64,000 bases of DNA, taken from the NCBI GenBank assembly GCA_964460795.1, contig CAYWRU010000001.1:19116-83115 (forward strand). The letters run 5' to 3'. The stretch comes from an uncultured bacterium (GTDB lineage Bacteria; Omnitrophota; Omnitrophia; Omnitrophales; Aquincolibacteriaceae). Below the pieces are notes generated by a model. The model did not search any database. It was not told the DNA's origin and saw only the letters and a list, made by a program, of their open reading frames with translations. A program made the translations under genes and the position numbers. Shown here in pieces: positions 9,650 to 27,982 of the stretch (the first letter of the stretch is position 1; the number at the start of each line of letters is the position of its first letter).

Positions 9650-11122
9650 TTAGCTGCCGTGAGTGCGGCTGGCGATGCTGTCACGCAAGCTCTGCGTTTG
9701 CTGCATGTACTCGTCATATGCCGAGTCCAGTTTACCGCGCAGGCCGCTAAGGTTGACTTGGCCTGCGCCGGCTAAAGCAGGGCGGCTGCCGTGCGAGCCT
9801 ACCATGGAACCAAGACCGGCTCCAAGAATGTCGCCGAGACCAAGTCGACTGAACAGCCTACGGCCTGCTAAGGTCTTGGCGCCTGCCACGCCGAGCAAGC
9901 TGCCGGCCAATCCGCTTAGACCTTCGCTTGTAGATGTTTCACCGCGCGTTAGGCCTTCAATAGGTTTGACGCCTCCGTGGATAAACCCACCGATACCGGG
10001 AACCGCGGCCAGTAGATCTTTGCGATCAAATGATTCCTTTTCCTGCGAAACCGGTTCAGCGTACAGCGGCGACGGTTGCGACTCGTACATCTTACGACGA
10101 CGGGCGCTTTGCGCACGGCGCAGAAGTTCCGACTCTTGACGCTTCTTGAAGTGGTTGTAAACCAGCGCAGCCGTAATGGCTCCGCTTCCAAGGGCACCTA
10201 CGCCGTATGCACCTGTAAGAGCACCGGCGGCGTTTGTGTACGTAGTGGGATCGATGGCCGCGGACGCTAGTTCCGAAAAGCCGGCTGTTTTCTCAAGGGC
10301 GCAGAATTGGTCGTATAGGCGATCAAGCTCTACAGCCGCCGACGAATCGGAAGCAGTTTTGCCTTTGTTCTTGTACTCGTTCATCAGCGCCTGTTCGTAT
10401 TCCGTCTGAGCGCTCTCTAGCTCGCCTTCAAGCTCGGCCTTGCGCCGGGAGTCCAGCAGCTTGTCCGCCACCTTCCAGCCGCCGTAGAGGCCTCCCAGGC
10501 CCGCTGCAAGGCCCGCGGGGATAGCCCAGGGGATTCCGGCCGGGGTCACAGCCTGATCGCCCTGCAGGAAGCTCCCAGGGCCTAATAGGCCACCTTCCTT
10601 ATTCAGCCCGCCCACGAGCGCGCCGATACCGCCTCCGGCGCCAGCGCCGTATTGGGCACCTTCTACACCGAAGCGCTTAATTGCCTGATTGCGCATCTGG
10701 CGAATCGCTTTGTCGCCAAAGATGCCCTTGAAGAAATTCATAACGGATGGCCGGGTGCTGTATAGTCCTCGAAGCAATCCAGCCATTCCGCCCAAGCCTG
10801 CGCCCACGCCAAGGCCGACTGCGCCGCCTGTGAGTGTGCGGCCAATAAGTCCTTGGTCCTCAGCCGTCTTGGCCGGAATCGGAATTTGCATGGAGACAGG
10901 GGCGGATGCCGGCCGCTTTTGCTTCTTAATGTTTCGGCGGTAAAGGCCGTGAAGAGCCGATACGCCGCGAGCCGCAGCCCCTACTCCGGCGAGGCCAAGG
11001 CCGGCAAGGCCGAGGCGACGAAGCGTATTCATTTGCATCTGGCGAGCCGTAGCCAATTGAACGGCATCTTCCAGGGAACCAACCTCAATGGCGGCGGATT
11101 TGAGTAGCGACATGCAAAACAT
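9650..11122 (-). CDS. glycine-zipper-rich membrane-associated protein (490 aa)
   Basis: Repeated small-xxx-small hydrophobic segments (GLAGLGLAGVGAAARG, GGAVGLGVGAGLGGMAGLL, GAGAGGGIGALVGG, AGLAAGLGGLYGG) and a charged coiled-coil middle. Confidence 0.6.
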   Translation of the reverse strand: MFCMSLLKSAAIEVGSLEDAVQLATARQMQMNTLRRLGLAGLGLAGVGAAARGVSALHGLYRRNIKKQKRPASAPVSMQIPIPAKTAEDQGLIGRTLTGGAVGLGVGAGLGGMAGLLRGLYSTRPSVMNFFKGIFGDKAIRQMRNQAIKRFGVEGAQYGAGAGGGIGALVGGLNKEGGLLGPGSFLQGDQAVTPAGIPWAIPAGLAAGLGGLYGGWKVADKLLDSRRKAELEGELESAQTEYEQALMNEYKNKGKTASDSSAAVELDRLYDQFCALEKTAGFSELASAAIDPTTYTNAAGALTGAYGVGALGSGAITAALVYNHFKKRQESELLRRAQSARRRKMYESQPSPLYAEPVSQEKESFDRKDLLAAVPGIGGFIHGGVKPIEGLTRGETSTSEGLSGLAGSLLGVAGAKTLAGRRLFSRLGLGDILGAGLGSMVGSHGSRPALAGAGQVNLSGLRGKLDSAYDEYMQQTQSLRDSIASRTHGS

Positions 11123-12112: not shown

Positions 12113-12133
12113 CCTTGCTCTCCTTCTATCGGC

Positions 12134-12538
12134 CTAAGCCGGAAATTCACTCATCCGCTTAGTAGAAGCTTTTGGAATGTTCATGCCAACGCTGATCTGC
12201 TGCGGCAGCCGGCGGATACGGTCCTTAATCATGCTCGGATCGTCGTAAGAACCCTGCTCTCGGGCCTGCCGGATCACTGCGGGAGCTTTCTCGCAGAATT
12301 CCAGGTCCGATTCCAGATATGGCAGGAATTTGTATTCCGGCGTGTTTCTTTTACTATTCCCAAGACGCAGGCGTTTGCCGTTGAAGTCGGAGATAGCCGC
12401 CACACGCTCGGCAGCCACCCGCCAGTGCATGGCCTCGTAGTAGCCGGTCTTTACGTCCTCAACATGCACTAAGCCGTTCTCGGCCCACACTTTGATGTGC
12501 CGCAGGTTCAGTACGTTGTGTTGCCCTAGTATGTACAT
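12134..12538 (-). CDS. hypothetical protein (134 aa)
   Basis: Track ORF. Its start overlaps the upstream stop by 1 nt. Confidence 0.55.
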   Translation of the reverse strand: MYILGQHNVLNLRHIKVWAENGLVHVEDVKTGYYEAMHWRVAAERVAAISDFNGKRLRLGNSKRNTPEYKFLPYLESDLEFCEKAPAVIRQAREQGSYDDPSMIKDRIRRLPQQISVGMNIPKASTKRMSEFPA

Positions 12539-12729
12539 TACTTGCTCTCGTCCTTTTGGATGTACGGCCGCAGTAGCGAAATAGCCAAGTCACTCAGCTC
12601 TGCGTTGGGTAGGTTGACCGGGTCTGCGGCCGATTGCAGCATGTTTGTAACTTGCTGAATCGTCATGTGGCGCCGCATAAGCTCGGCTGTGACGCACAGA
12701 AGCAATTCCTCGGGCTCGAACTTAAACAC
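12538..12729 (-). CDS. hypothetical protein (63 aa)
   Basis: Track ORF, abutting both neighbours. Confidence 0.5.
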   Translation of the reverse strand: MFKFEPEELLLCVTAELMRRHMTIQQVTNMLQSAADPVNLPNAELSDLAISLLRPYIQKDESK

Positions 12730-12984
12730 TTAGTCGCCTCCGCAGTAATAGCCATATGAATCGTACTTACCTTGTCCGGCCCGACGCAAGCTTTGGTCTT
12801 TGACCGGGTAGAACGGAAGGCCCATGCTCGTTATACGCCACCACTTATCGGTGTCGTCGATGCGCACATAAGCGCCGGGCTCCAGCCCCTCCTGTACGGG
12901 GCACACAAACTGAGTAGTCAGGTCATCACGCTTTACGGACAGCTTGACGTGAAGCTCACGTCGTTCGCCTACATCAAAACACAT
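12730..12984 (-). CDS. hypothetical protein (84 aa)
   Basis: Track ORF. A copy of the palindromic element ends 1 nt before its ATG. Confidence 0.5.
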   Translation of the reverse strand: MCFDVGERRELHVKLSVKRDDLTTQFVCPVQEGLEPGAYVRIDDTDKWWRITSMGLPFYPVKDQSLRRAGQGKYDSYGYYCGGD

Positions 12985-12985
12985 A

Positions 12986-13003
12986 TTGCACGCGCGTTCA
13001 CAA
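12986..13003 (-). repeat. palindromic element copy (TGAACGCGCGTGCAAT on minus strand)
   Basis: The plus strand reads ttgcacgcgcgttcacaa. Abuts the start codon of 12730..12984. Confidence 0.7.
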
Positions 13004-13552: not shown

Positions 13553-13600
13553 CTGATAGCTAAGAAAAAGCGATGGCGGGGCCGAAGCCCCAACCATCGC
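13553..13600 (-). terminator. rho-independent terminator followed by conserved TAGCTATCAG box
   Basis: Minus strand: GCGATGGttGGGGCttcgGCCCCgCCATCGC, then TTTTTCTTAGCTATCAG. Confidence 0.75.
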
Positions 13601-13636: not shown

Positions 13637-14290
13637 CTACGGCGTCTCGTCTAAGACGGTCGGATTAGCACGAAAGCGACTATGCGGCAGCAGGTGCTGG
13701 ATTGCCCGCATAGGCGCGAATATGTGCTTTCCGGTCAACCACGGCAACTTACTCCACTGTGGAAGCTGGAAGAAGTTGATGCCGCCTACGTCCTTTTCAA
13801 TCGTACCCGCAGCTATCGCTACGAGTGCGTAGAAAACCTTGTCATGATAACAAGCGTCTACCATCTCCAGGCGTGTGAGGCCGAAGAAGTTTACAACGAC
13901 GTCGGGCTTAAGCGAGGCCGGCAACTTACGTGGAAACGTAAGCGTATCTTCCGTATACACGCCGAGAGAGAAATCCCACAGCAGCGGCTCTCTTCGAGTC
14001 GGCTCCTGCGGGAGGTTACTCCTCAGCGCGAAATGCATGGCGTTGAGCAAATGCTTTGCCTCAAGGAATGCATCGCCGGCGTACCTCGGAAAGAAATCAA
14101 GAACTTCGAAGGTGCTGTTTTCGAACGTCTTTGATGCTCGGAGCACGTATCGGCGATACGGTCTCCGCGGCATGTCTACCTTGGACGGAACCAAGGCGGT
14201 TTGATCGGGCTTGGCGAACAAGCCCTTGAAGCCGGTGACGACCGAGGCCATGACGGCCGTCACGGTCTCGATAAAGGAACGGCGATTCAA
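13637..14290 (-). CDS. Tat-signal protein (217 aa)
   Basis: N-terminus MNRRSFIETVTAVMASVVTGFKGLFA contains the twin-arginine consensus (RRxF followed by a hydrophobic stretch). Confidence 0.6.
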   Translation of the reverse strand: MNRRSFIETVTAVMASVVTGFKGLFAKPDQTALVPSKVDMPRRPYRRYVLRASKTFENSTFEVLDFFPRYAGDAFLEAKHLLNAMHFALRSNLPQEPTRREPLLWDFSLGVYTEDTLTFPRKLPASLKPDVVVNFFGLTRLEMVDACYHDKVFYALVAIAAGTIEKDVGGINFFQLPQWSKLPWLTGKHIFAPMRAIQHLLPHSRFRANPTVLDETP

Positions 14291-14291
14291 G

Positions 14292-14858
14292 CTAATCTCC
14301 TCGACCCAAAAGGCCCAATATGCCGGCTGCTCCGAGCATGCCGCGCTTAGTGGGCTCCAAGATGACAGGCTGACCGCGCTCCATGAGAATCACGGACACG
14401 CAGTTGCAGACCCAGTGAACTTCTCCCTCGTACGCCCTGTACCAGCTAAGGTCAGGGTCGTGCTCATTGCGCGCTTTAACGAACGCAAGGTTAGCCGATT
14501 CAAATAAGAGCTTTAATTCCTCCGGCGTCTTCCCACGGCAGGCTTCAAAACCCATCACAGCCCCATGTACCAACCGAGCGTAACACGGCTCCGGATATTC
14601 GCGTTTTACGACTTGAATACCGCGGTCGATTACGCGCTCCTGAAATTCCGCTAGGTCCAACTGCTTTGCCTCCATTCCCAGGTGTTTAAGAGCGACGTAC
14701 ATGTTGCTCTGTGGATTTGCATAAGCGGCTACGTAGGGCCTAACCCTGCATGCCGCCATTGCTTCGAACGTATCGTTCACGCACTCGATCACGAACTTCG
14801 ATACCCGTTGGCACAGATAGAACGGCCACAGCATCGCAAACAGGCATATGCGGACCAT
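14292..14858 (-). CDS. hypothetical protein (188 aa)
   Basis: Track ORF with a hydrophobic N-terminus. No motif recognised. Confidence 0.55.
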   Translation of the reverse strand: MVRICLFAMLWPFYLCQRVSKFVIECVNDTFEAMAACRVRPYVAAYANPQSNMYVALKHLGMEAKQLDLAEFQERVIDRGIQVVKREYPEPCYARLVHGAVMGFEACRGKTPEELKLLFESANLAFVKARNEHDPDLSWYRAYEGEVHWVCNCVSVILMERGQPVILEPTKRGMLGAAGILGLLGRGD

Positions 14859-14875
14859 GGCCGCGCTCTCCTTAG

Positions 14876-15355
14876 CTAGGCTTCGAATTCAACTCCACAC
14901 GTACGATTGATGTCGGACGGCCCTTCAACCAGGCTGATCAGATCATCGCGACCAAACTTGAGGTAGGTCGCCCAGAACTGACCGAGCCACAGGGTTGTTT
15001 CCGTCTCCAGCTTCGTCCACTTGAGCACACGAGTTTTACTCACAGGCTCTTTGGCGAAACGGAAGCCGGCCATCAGCCCCTTCATGCGGATGTACGGCCC
15101 GAACATGCGCGTAGACGTAAACGTCCGCATTTCAATGTCCTTGGCGTACGCTTCAGGGCTTTTACCGTCCACGGCGCAGGCGGTGGACACGATGCCGTAA
15201 CGCGGATCTTCGAACTCCATGACGAAGTTCAGAACCCCGCCTACGCCTTCAGGCAACTGGAGCTTAGGCCCCAGCGCTTGAACACTTTTAACACCGGCAA
15301 CACTGAACAAGGCCGTCGAGCCGGTGACGATGGCCATAAACTCACGCCGATCCAT
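14876..15355 (-). CDS. Tat-signal protein (159 aa)
   Basis: Start moved to the ATG at 15355, with GGAG 9 nt upstream. N-terminus MDRREFMAIVTGSTALFSVAGVKSVQA. Confidence 0.6.
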   Translation of the reverse strand: MDRREFMAIVTGSTALFSVAGVKSVQALGPKLQLPEGVGGVLNFVMEFEDPRYGIVSTACAVDGKSPEAYAKDIEMRTFTSTRMFGPYIRMKGLMAGFRFAKEPVSKTRVLKWTKLETETTLWLGQFWATYLKFGRDDLISLVEGPSDINRTCGVEFEA

Positions 15356-15383
15356 AGCGCCAATCTCCAACAGGGTTAAGTAA

Positions 15384-15866
15384 CTAAAGGCGAACAATCC
15401 CGCCGGTTCCGTTGATCATCTTCATGCAATTGTCGAAACCGGTCAGGCTAAACTGGTGCAGAAACCACTCGCAGGTAAACGGGACGCGGTCTTCGCCTTC
15501 CCACTTGGCCAGGTAATTGAAGATGCGCTCGACATGCTCCGTTTTGCCGCAGTAAGCAAGCGTTACGGCAAGCAACGGCGCTTGAGGATGCATGACCTTG
15601 GTGAAGCTGAGAACACGCGCGCACATCTCGATGGCCAACATCTTGGGATTTGGTCCCCAGATGCCGTCGGACAGTTTGCGCCAGTCATACAAGCCGCCGG
15701 CGCCGGAGATGGTGATACTGAAGCTCGCATCAGGCTCGCCCAACGGATTGTGCTTTTGGTTCTCCGGCTTCTCCACGGGGCCGTACGCATTAAGCACGGC
15801 AGGAGTCAATGCGCCCGAACCGGCAAGCGCTGCGATAAACGTACGACGATCCACGGTAACCTCCAT
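15384..15866 (-). CDS. Tat-signal protein (160 aa)
   Basis: N-terminus MEVTVDRRTFIAALAGSGALTPAVLNA. Confidence 0.6.
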   Translation of the reverse strand: MEVTVDRRTFIAALAGSGALTPAVLNAYGPVEKPENQKHNPLGEPDASFSITISGAGGLYDWRKLSDGIWGPNPKMLAIEMCARVLSFTKVMHPQAPLLAVTLAYCGKTEHVERIFNYLAKWEGEDRVPFTCEWFLHQFSLTGFDNCMKMINGTGGIVRL

Positions 15867-15880
15867 GAAAAGAAAGCTGA

Positions 15881-16189
15881 CTAGATAACTACGAGCGGCA
15901 CAGAAAGCCGTGTAGGAAATGTGTGCCCGTTAACGCACACAGAGTTACCGTCAAGTCGGCGCTCGGTGCTTTCGATATCGCCGGCACAGTGCGGACAGAC
16001 CCGCTTCTTAGCGGTATCGTCTTTGAGACGGGCGTCTTCCGGCTCTTTCGGAGTTTTCGCATCAAGAGACTTAAGACTGTGCTCTACGAAGCGAATAATG
16101 ACTTCTTGCGGAGTCATGGACAACATAACCGCCACCAAACCGATCTTGTCGTCGGTCTGGTCGGAGAACTCTACACAAATTATGCCCAA
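15881..16189 (-). CDS. zinc-ribbon protein (102 aa)
   Basis: TTG start. C-terminal CPHCAGD...CVNGH. A palindromic element lies upstream. Confidence 0.5.
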   Translation of the reverse strand: MGIICVEFSDQTDDKIGLVAVMLSMTPQEVIIRFVEHSLKSLDAKTPKEPEDARLKDDTAKKRVCPHCAGDIESTERRLDGNSVCVNGHTFPTRLSVPLVVI

Positions 16190-17013: not shown

Positions 17014-17049
17014 CATAGATAAAGAAAAAGGACGGCCTAAATGGCCGTC
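17014..17049 (-). terminator. rho-independent terminator with degenerate box
   Basis: Minus strand: GACGGCC-attta-GGCCGTC, then CTTTTTCTTTATCTATG. Confidence 0.65.
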
Positions 17050-17228
17050 CTTACTCACTTACTGTACCGCACTTGGTGGCCGTATTTAGCCGCCTAGTCG
17101 GTTTTCACGTACTGCCATGTACCCATGAAGTAGACGAACGTGACTCGTGTTGATCCGCCAAACGGATCAGTGTAGCTGAACTCTTGCCCTTCCTTGGGAT
17201 TCTCAGGCCATTGGATTTCGTCCACAGC

Positions 17229-24008: not shown

Positions 24009-24311
24009 TTATTTGTCTTTGGGCAGCACGATTACGATGGGAATCGTAATAACGTAGCCCCTTGCCGTGTTTTGTTTGTTCAGGCACGCAAGTGCGCGGT
24101 ACGTGTAACCTTCAGAAGTGATGTCGATGAGCCACCATCCGTTGCCGGCATCCATGTTTATCTTGGTGCCCTCCGGCAAATATTGCTTTAGTAGCTCGGC
24201 GTTGCGCTCGCGCTCGATTTGAGTGACTTGCTCGGGCGTCAGCTGAATCTTCGGCTGAGCTTCACAGCCCAGCGCCGTCAGCAGAACCAGGCATGCGATC
24301 AGGTATCTCAT
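24009..24311 (-). CDS. lipoprotein (100 aa)
   Basis: MRYLIACLVLLTALG-C, with lipobox LTALGC. Confidence 0.6.
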   Translation of the reverse strand: MRYLIACLVLLTALGCEAQPKIQLTPEQVTQIERERNAELLKQYLPEGTKINMDAGNGWWLIDITSEGYTYRALACLNKQNTARGYVITIPIVIVLPKDK

Positions 24312-27433: not shown

Positions 27434-27982
27434 CTAAGCGAAGAAACGATGCCGAGGCGTCTTGGCGATCAGAAGAGCAATGTTCTTCGATTGCTGACGC
27501 GCAACACGCCCGCTGGGCGTATCGAGAGTATCGAGCACGTAATGCATGTCGTACAAGTTGCCGAGTTGATACACGGCGTTGTTACGAAAGCGATCGTTAG
27601 GGAGATACAACTGGTCGTATTTGAACGTGACGTCTGCGTCCACAATACCGAGTCGAACTTCCTTCACGATCCCCTTAGCTTGAGGATCGCAGTACGTGTT
27701 ATCCAATCCTTCGGCAATCCAGCTAGCTACCGCCAATGCGGCAACTTCCGGACACGAAGGACGCACGAGAAACTCTTCAAACCACCGAAGAACTCTGGTC
27801 TTACCGGAGACTTCCATCGTTTCGAGAATCTCGTACATAAACGTAAGCGGATACGGAATATCCACTTCGTCTTCAACCTGCTTCGAACGAAGCGGGCCGG
27901 CGAGGTTGTAGGCCGTAAGGCCAAACTCGACGGCAACCGCACCTGATCCGACCATCGATGCCAGAAATGTCCTGCGATCCAT
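27434..27982 (-). CDS. Tat-signal protein (182 aa)
   Basis: N-terminus MDRRTFLASMVGSGAVAVEFGLTA. Confidence 0.6.
   Translation of the reverse strand: MDRRTFLASMVGSGAVAVEFGLTAYNLAGPLRSKQVEDEVDIPYPLTFMYEILETMEVSGKTRVLRWFEEFLVRPSCPEVAALAVASWIAEGLDNTYCDPQAKGIVKEVRLGIVDADVTFKYDQLYLPNDRFRNNAVYQLGNLYDMHYVLDTLDTPSGRVARQQSKNIALLIAKTPRHRFFA

Follow-up and report, generated by a model that had tools for sequence, protein, structure and literature searches.

Twin-Arginine Leader Genes and Their Neighborhood

We analyzed a 64,000-nucleotide stretch of DNA (hereafter the window), which is C1:19116-83115, C1 being contig CAYWRU010000001.1 of a 3.7-Mb metagenome-assembled genome (MAG) of 176 contigs. Four genes of this window, P1 to P4 (Table 1), code for products with N-termini that all read M-[D/N]-R-R-x-F-[I/L/M] and resemble the signals for twin-arginine translocation (Tat). 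These N-termini had been quoted in an initial annotation, and all of them were found on the minus strand. Among 217 open reading frames (ORFs), N-termini matching M-[DNK]-R-R-x-F-[ILM] were seen 4 times versus 0.0013 expected from composition, and the leader is enriched 7- to 15-fold with respect to the rest of the MAG (odds ratio; Fisher p = 0.001-0.006).

Each of the four starts is preceded, at a distance of 5-10 nt, by a Shine-Dalgarno sequence, GGAG or AGGAG, with AGGAG lying 6 nt before the TTG of P1 and GGAGG 5 nt before the GTG of P3. The start of P2 is the ATG at 15355 and not the upstream TTG of the longest ORF. P3 had been assigned to an ATG at 15866; however, it most likely starts at the GTG at 15854, because that ATG overlaps the GGAGG serving the GTG and the gene of a relative (P0004) is called at 156 amino acids (aa). 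That the true starts might lie downstream of the arginine pair is refuted by the Shine-Dalgarno sites and by the retention of the leader in orthologs of 25-27% identity.

The block at 13637-15866 does contain the three leader-bearing products attributed to it, and in addition a 188-aa gene without such a leader, the most highly conserved one there. The block is packed as one transcription unit running from ~17.0 kb to 13.57 kb between two terminators. The hairpin of the closing terminator (-25.6 kcal/mol, z = -4.3) was equaled by 0 of 200 shuffles, and its absence from the list of a simple consensus scan is explained by a bulge in the stem. P4 sits 9 kb from the block, straight after the gene for a His-rich membrane protein, a pairing kept in the relative L004; a 198-aa ORF overlaps P4 on the opposite strand. 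The membrane protein has no Pfam match, and the 188-aa gene has no family or PDB match; that the latter might be a partner or chaperone of the leader-bearing products is only a guess.

Table 1. Positions of the leader genes and of the features associated with them (window coordinates unless a relative is named; the arrow marks a predicted cleavage point).
Feature	Position	Strand	Description
P1	13637-14290	-	217 aa, TTG start, leader MNRRSFIETVTAVMASVVTGFKGLFA↓KP, orphan mature domain
P1 leader, residues 1-26	14213-14290	-	RR motif, 13-residue uncharged h-region, c-region Lys, candidate site LFA↓K
P2	14876-15355	-	159 aa, ATG start, leader MDRREFMAIVTGSTALFSVAGVKSVQA↓LGP
P2 leader, residues 1-27	15275-15355	-	17-residue uncharged run, c-region Lys, candidate site VQA↓L
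P3	15384-15854	-	156 aa, GTG start (most likely), leader MDRRTFIAALAGSGALTPAVLNA↓YGP
P3 leader, residues 1-23	15786-15854	-	23-residue uncharged run, candidate site LNA↓Y
P4	27434-27982	-	182 aa, ATG start, leader MDRRTFLASMVGSGAVAVEFGLTAYNLA↓GP
P4 leader, residues 1-28	27899-27982	-	14-residue uncharged run broken by conserved Glu; candidate site LTA↓Y or NLA↓G
188-aa gene without RR leader	14292-14858	-	mid-operon
His-rich polytopic membrane protein gene, 215 aa	28000-28647	-	directly upstream of P4
Intrinsic terminator closing the P3-P2-188aa-P1 unit	13561-13600	-	hairpin 13570-13600, then U-run
Terminator after the 324-aa gene, upstream of the unit	17028-17052	-	found by terminator scan
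182-aa cassette junction	window 14282-14296; L008 8855-8870, 9398-9415	-	comparison with L008 (strand given for the window)
170-aa cassette repeat	L008 7750-7766, 8272-8292; window 14858-14880		window keeps one copy
102-aa zinc-ribbon-like protein gene	15881-16189		
Exported-looking phage protein	24009-24311	-	MRYLIACLVLLTALGC↓EAQ, lipobox; N-terminus matches lipoprotein families YfiB, RcsF
Exported-looking phage protein	16413-16754	-	MRSTVLFVGFLSVVALLVTCAGAG, then coiled coil

Anatomy of the Leaders

The general Tat consensus is Z-R-R-x-Φ-Φ, placed among the first ~35 residues where n- and h-region meet (PMC13673990), and the default pattern of TatP, RR.[FGAVML][LITMVF], covers 97% of its training set (PMC1182353). 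Both fit all four window leaders (D/N-R-R-S/E/T-F-I/M/L) as well as six leaders from relatives. Across these ten leaders, the uncharged runs extend over 13-28 residues (13, 17, 23 and 14 in P1-P4) with much Gly, Ser and Thr and little Leu, and the maximum 10-residue Kyte-Doolittle mean is 1.6-2.4, with the window leaders at 1.6-2.0 and the RR leaders of the MAG at 1.3-2.0. The Gly+Ser+Thr fraction of the window leaders (0.26-0.38) and their Leu fraction (0-0.13) are close to those of the MAG's own RR leaders, which also read M-x-R-R-x-F-L and have the same unusual one-residue n-region. Class I Tat signals have uncharged h-regions of ~12-20 residues that are less hydrophobic than those of Sec signals, and the h-regions of the window leaders agree with this. 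By pattern, P1, P2 and P3 possess plausible AxA-like sites (Table 1) followed by Pro-containing linkers. The site of P4 is ambiguous by pattern, so that P4 could be an uncleaved anchor. All four leaders lack Cys and are thereby set apart from lipoprotein (signal peptidase II) signals.

Profile hidden Markov model (HMM) searches were performed on 40-residue N-termini, the curated cutoffs being 16.7 bits for TIGR01409 and 22.7 bits for PF10518. P1 matched TIGR01409 with 14.8 bits, and P3 and P4 matched PF10518 with 14.8 and 14.2 bits, respectively; for these three a Tat-signal model was the sole meaningful family match. The leaders of relatives reached 16-20 bits, with one of them passing the TIGR01409 cutoff (16.9), and four Tat-like leaders of the MAG scored 13.8-17.9 bits, mostly under the cutoff too. 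Three non-RR N-termini from the same phage, taken as controls, matched no Tat model, and one of them, which has a lipobox, matched lipoprotein families instead. The sub-cutoff scores of the window leaders are specific and no worse than those of presumed genuine substrates in the MAG. The machinery that such signals would use is coded by the co-binned genome, with TatC on contig C59, TatA on C34 and two signal peptidase I (LepB) genes; neither TatA, TatC nor signal peptidase I was found on C1.

Two further sequences on C1 are recorded here as separate observations. A 490-aa protein (9650-11122, minus strand) carries TLRRLGLAGLGLAGVGAAARGVSALHG at residues 33-59, possibly a glycine-zipper membrane segment or else an RR-type signal in an internal position. 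The other, an 89-aa ORF beyond the window (C1:97064-97330, minus strand) starting with MKRRGFFAAIGVAVVAALLW, has an RR motif and a much more hydrophobic segment (Kyte-Doolittle 2.97), and its product is probably a membrane anchor.

Selection on the Leaders and Their Genes

The arginine pair is invariant in 9 of 9 leaders, in which the Arg codons differ (CGG, CGT, CGC, AGG, AGA); this points to constraint on the protein rather than on a copied stretch of DNA. The leader is also retained where the remainder of the protein has diverged strongly. Thus, the P2 ortholog in the relative L009 is only 27% identical and keeps MDRREF[M/L]A, and the members of another leader family, of 182 aa in L008 and 206 aa in L009, share 25% identity and keep RREFLAGL. 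Homologs of P4 at 84% and 61% identity retain both MDRR.FLA and the Glu of the h-region. In the comparison of the window with L008, the ratio of nonsynonymous to synonymous substitution rates is 0.15 for P1, 0.17 for P2 and 0.68 for P3 (on 10 differences only), versus 0.04 for the 188-aa gene, which is 99.5% identical in L008, and 0.07 for the 324-aa neighbor. The leader-bearing genes are real and under purifying selection, yet less constrained than their neighbors.

A Locus of Cassette Turnover

A comparison with relatives revealed considerable variability in the stretch bounded by the conserved 324-aa gene and the RNA polymerase (RNAP) gene, which measures ~10 kb in the window, 9.3 kb in L009, ~5 kb in L022 and just ~2 kb in L010 and L011. 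Five RR-leader genes lie there in L008, a relative with 96% identity, the extra ones being a 170-aa gene (leader MKRREFLAAAAAAAAGLPVAASA↓L) and a 182-aa gene; L009 has two and L022 one, and none were found in this stretch of L010, L011 and L020. From this presence and absence among relatives, we take the RR genes to be dispensable accessory cassettes. In L022, a more distant relative, the RR-leader protein at 12113-12787 has a collagen-like G-x-y tail (GPSGPTGPVGPVGIAGSNGPLGPPGLLGP).

The events themselves can be read at the nucleotide level. First, the 182-aa cassette is absent from the window phage, and the junction falls exactly behind codon 2 and ahead of the first Arg codon in two successive leaders: the window reads TTGAAT/CGCCGT, and L008 reads TTGAAT/AGGCGT on the left and GTGATTGAT/CGCCGT on the right. 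The position of this junction implies that P1 took its Shine-Dalgarno site, start codon and 'MN' from the lost 182-aa gene, and the retention of an ortholog of this cassette by L009 indicates a deletion in the window lineage. Judged by these junctions, the leader-coding sequence acts as a recombination joint. Second, copies of the direct repeat TTAG[T/C]TAAGGAGA, in which a stop codon meets a Shine-Dalgarno site, border the 170-aa cassette in L008; cassettes thus seem to be gained or lost at gene-boundary repeats as well. Third, L021 (ENA ERZ27282954) has P3 and most of P2 deleted with the 188-aa gene retained, and what is left is a 58-aa fusion ORF (L021 449-625) made up of the N-terminus of the 102-aa zinc-ribbon-like protein and the final 38 residues of P2.

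The Mature Domains

The mature parts of P1-P4 comprise ~130-190 aa rather than the 150-200 aa given in the initial annotation. They showed no match in Pfam, NCBIfam, PHROGs or PADLOC and nothing significant in PDB sequence searches, in keeping with the earlier remark that they have no recognizable motif. There was likewise no significant similarity among the mature parts themselves, and none of them resembles another gene on the 175-kb contig, possible capsid copies included. Hence, the earlier description of the products as a family does not hold: as far as sequence comparison can tell, the cargoes are unrelated orphans that have the leader alone in common. By the same comparison, at least seven unrelated cargo families stand behind this leader across the clade. 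Homolog searches returned matches in close phage relatives only. Two candidate distant homologs, P0007 and P0008, were rejected as repetitive low-complexity proteins.

Tat-Type Leaders on Other Viral Contigs

The exact pattern MDRREF[L/F]A proved rare in IMG/VR, with 8 matches, none with a hydrophobic region behind it. A somewhat broader DNA pattern, coding for M-x-R-R-x-F-L-A-[A/G]-x-Φ-A, returned 22 matches (L023-L044), nearly all of which are the N-termini of ORFs of 54-200 aa with Tat-like leaders. The most elaborate case is a tandem array of four genes (197, 137, 139 and 88 aa; L035 3100-4765) on the unrelated 256-kb contig IMGVR_UViG_3300037466_002112, located ~1.8 kb upstream of an ATP-dependent ligase gene. 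Its leaders are textbook Tat-type, with predicted sites ALA↓L, AKA↓E, AMA↓D and AKA↓F, and three of the four match TIGR01409. Two such RR-leader genes also occur in tandem in L044. Several of the 22 share a conserved mature start, for instance DPERLLWxPG..ISIP or AAARG.YIHRG.YIVGE.

A tblastn search of cultured phages with one leader found no match, and literature searches found no described phage-encoded Tat substrate; a 2026 review of the Tat system lists no phage-encoded substrates and brings in phages only via SlyD/ΦX174 and T4 RI (PMC13673990). The earlier premise that phages rarely encode Tat substrates is nonetheless doubtful in light of the 22 IMG/VR leaders, the four-gene array among them, and such leaders seem to be under-described rather than rare.

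The Phage Contig, Its Bin and Its Host

C1 (174.7 kb, 53.8% GC) encodes a 1487-aa RNAP beta-beta'N fusion matching phage RNAP PHROGs, an ATP-dependent ligase (phrog_114), AAA ATPases and an exonuclease. The PHROG search of large C1 ORFs additionally recognized NAMPT and a Ro-like RNA-binding protein, and recognized neither capsid nor portal. No terminase was recognized on C1, the Terminase_6N matches of the bin all being on other contigs. The syntenic relatives of C1 are metagenomic contigs of 75-170 kb. With these large-phage genes and syntenic contigs, and without a recognizable capsid, portal or terminase, C1 is very probably, though not provably, a jumbo phage that was mis-binned or co-binned with a bacterium. 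In the MAG, contigs C27, C29, C62, C66, C109 and C157 carry six genes for a terminase large subunit (Terminase_6N), which indicates that the bin holds several other phages or prophages.

Only one spacer-like match was found between the phage and the bin, an exact one of 24 nt (window 12980-13003 = C28:32425-32448), and C28 may be a contig of a related element. The anchor gene had no match in IMG/VR or JGI metagenomes and one distant relative in GTDB genomes.

Interpretation and Alternatives

The reading that best fits these data, and which we hold with moderate confidence, is that P1-P4 are accessory envelope-acting proteins exported by the Tat system of the host. The four genes would be accessory genes of a large, jumbo-type phage, with each product bearing a predicted class I Tat signal peptide. 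The products would be translated and folded in the infected cell, have their RR leader recognized by the host TatBC receptor, and cross the inner membrane through TatA, powered by the proton-motive force. Host signal peptidase I would then cut P1, P2 and P3 at the AxA-like sites, and P4 may remain anchored. The orphan domains released in this way (130-190 aa) would most likely act on the envelope, with candidate roles in the exclusion of superinfecting phages, receptor masking, or the modulation of the wall or of lysis. These roles are suggested by the location and evolutionary behavior of the genes, with phage periplasmic proteins as precedents.

Several observations weigh against Tat export. 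First, all four leaders score under the curated HMM cutoffs, and P2 matches no Tat HMM. Second, at 23-28 aa, of which a single residue forms the n-region, the leaders fall short of the mean length of Tat signals, 37 aa (PMC1182353); the consensus Lys after F-L is missing, with P1 having a Glu in its place, and a conserved Glu lies within the h-region of P4. Third, some RR-bearing signals of B. subtilis in fact use the Sec pathway (PMC1182353). Fourth, neither a cofactor motif nor a known Tat-dependent domain or family was found in the mature parts, so that the earlier suggestion that they are possibly cofactor-bearing is not supported, and AlphaFold2 models built on 3-sequence alignments were unusable (pLDDT 38 for P4 and 49 for P2). 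Fifth, the phage is linked to the MAG by binning alone, and their GC contents differ (53.8% vs. ~47.5% in other large MAG contigs). Moreover, a distant relative, L020 (CAZWRK010000003.1, anchor gene 43% identical), was binned in an 'uncultured Aquaspirillum sp.' MAG, so that binning-based host assignment is inconsistent across the clade, with relatives falling with different phyla. The Tat-type anatomy proposed in the initial annotation stands as regards the consensus, the TatP pattern and the h-region and is plausible as regards the AxA-like sites of P1-P3, but it does not stand as regards the curated cutoffs, and the site of P4 is ambiguous.

The alternative that fares best, which we consider unlikely, is that the leaders are uncleaved membrane anchors, either class III Tat or Sec/YidC-inserted, tethering the domains to the outer face of the inner membrane. 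P4 fits this with its ambiguous site, its interrupted h-region and its position beside the polytopic membrane protein gene, a pairing that L004 shares. In addition, P1 and the leader of one relative also touch PF10399, the Rieske Tat-anchor model, and the fifth RR ORF of the contig (C1:97330) is more hydrophobic and anchor-like. However, P1-P3 and the majority of the relatives' leaders show AxA-like sites that look good by pattern, with Pro-rich linkers behind them, and their weakly hydrophobic h-regions of 13-17 residues are short for a stable transmembrane helix.

It is improbable that the leaders are ordinary Sec export signals in which the arginine pair merely supplies positive charge to the n-region. 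Such a situation has a counterpart in the many B. subtilis signals that match the RR pattern and are Sec-dependent (PMC1182353); a leader length of 23-28 aa is Sec-like, and the same phage does encode an ordinary lipoprotein-type signal (24009-24311). Against this stands the invariance of the entire R-R-x-F-Φ motif in 10 leaders, which goes beyond mere positive charge. The low hydrophobicity and scarcity of Leu, the basic c-region residue in P1, P2 and one leader of a relative, a known Sec-avoidance feature, and the Tat model as sole meaningful HMM match for three of the four leaders likewise speak for Tat rather than Sec.

Less probable still is that the leader merely resembles a Tat signal and is in fact a tag, specific to the phage, for sorting or assembly in the cytoplasm. 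The idea draws on the T4 capsid-targeting sequence, since the T4 internal-protein genes likewise combine one short leader with unrelated cargoes, at a variable locus where cassettes turn over. The window leaders, however, have all three parts of an export signal and match Tat models, no prohead-protease-type site is obvious, and no mature part resembles any other gene of C1, possible capsid copies included. The genes are, besides, located among small early-type genes beside the RNAP gene and not among recognizable head genes. Finally, that the ORFs or their N-termini arose by chance or through faulty annotation, as the want of database homologs beyond close relatives and the opposite-strand ORF overlapping P4 might suggest, is effectively refuted by the Shine-Dalgarno sites, purifying selection, orthologs conserved at 25-61% identity and the excess of the motif over its expectation.

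If the leaders do function as Tat signals, phages would be using folded-protein export to bring several fast-evolving proteins to the host envelope. The envelope governs access to receptors, the entry of DNA, superinfection exclusion and lysis, and the unannotated cargo domains, regarded as new folds, would be candidates for new envelope-targeting activities. The combination of a shared leader and interchangeable cargoes also offers a simple search handle for such effectors in metagenomic phages, a narrow DNA pattern having already given 22 leaders. A possible, if doubtful, generalization is that large phages maintain changing sets of small, mutually unrelated effector domains that all reach the envelope through the host Tat system, with the RR-leader coding sequence both giving the destination and forming the joint for the swapping or deletion of cassettes, and that this holds in at least two unrelated jumbo-phage lineages.

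Comparison with Known Systems

The window leaders share with bacterial class I Tat signals (TIGR01409/PF10518) the Z-R-R-x-Φ-Φ motif at the n/h boundary, a weakly hydrophobic h-region, a candidate AxA-type site and, in some, a basic residue in the c-region. E. coli CueO, a bacterial class I Tat substrate, also starts with M-Q-R-R-D-F-L. In contrast to the bacterial signals, the window leaders are phage-encoded, short and minimal in the n-region, with no Lys after F-L and with sub-cutoff scores, and their cargoes are orphans without a cofactor or known Tat-dependent fold.

In phage T4, the internal proteins (IPI-III and relatives) are coded by a variable locus and share an N-terminal capsid-targeting sequence, a leader that routes them to the prohead and that the head protease cuts off. 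The likeness to the window genes lies in a conserved short leader, unrelated fast-changing cargoes and the gain and loss of cassettes between close relatives; the T4 leader, however, is not a hydrophobic export signal, whereas that of the window has export-signal anatomy.

The role proposed here also has parallels in phage proteins of the envelope. T4 Sp and Imm and T5 Llp are sent out by Sec or lipoprotein signals. The T4 antiholin RI is likewise a periplasmic or envelope protein exported by a Sec or lipoprotein signal (PMC8385771). Like the role suggested for P1-P4, these are small accessory proteins that cross the inner membrane and affect lysis timing or superinfection exclusion; unlike the window set of several genes with RR leaders, they are single genes with Sec-type or lipobox signals. 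The small ORFs from IMG/VR have the same leader arrangement and, in L035 and L044, tandem arrays, with phage lineages and cargoes that differ from those of the window.

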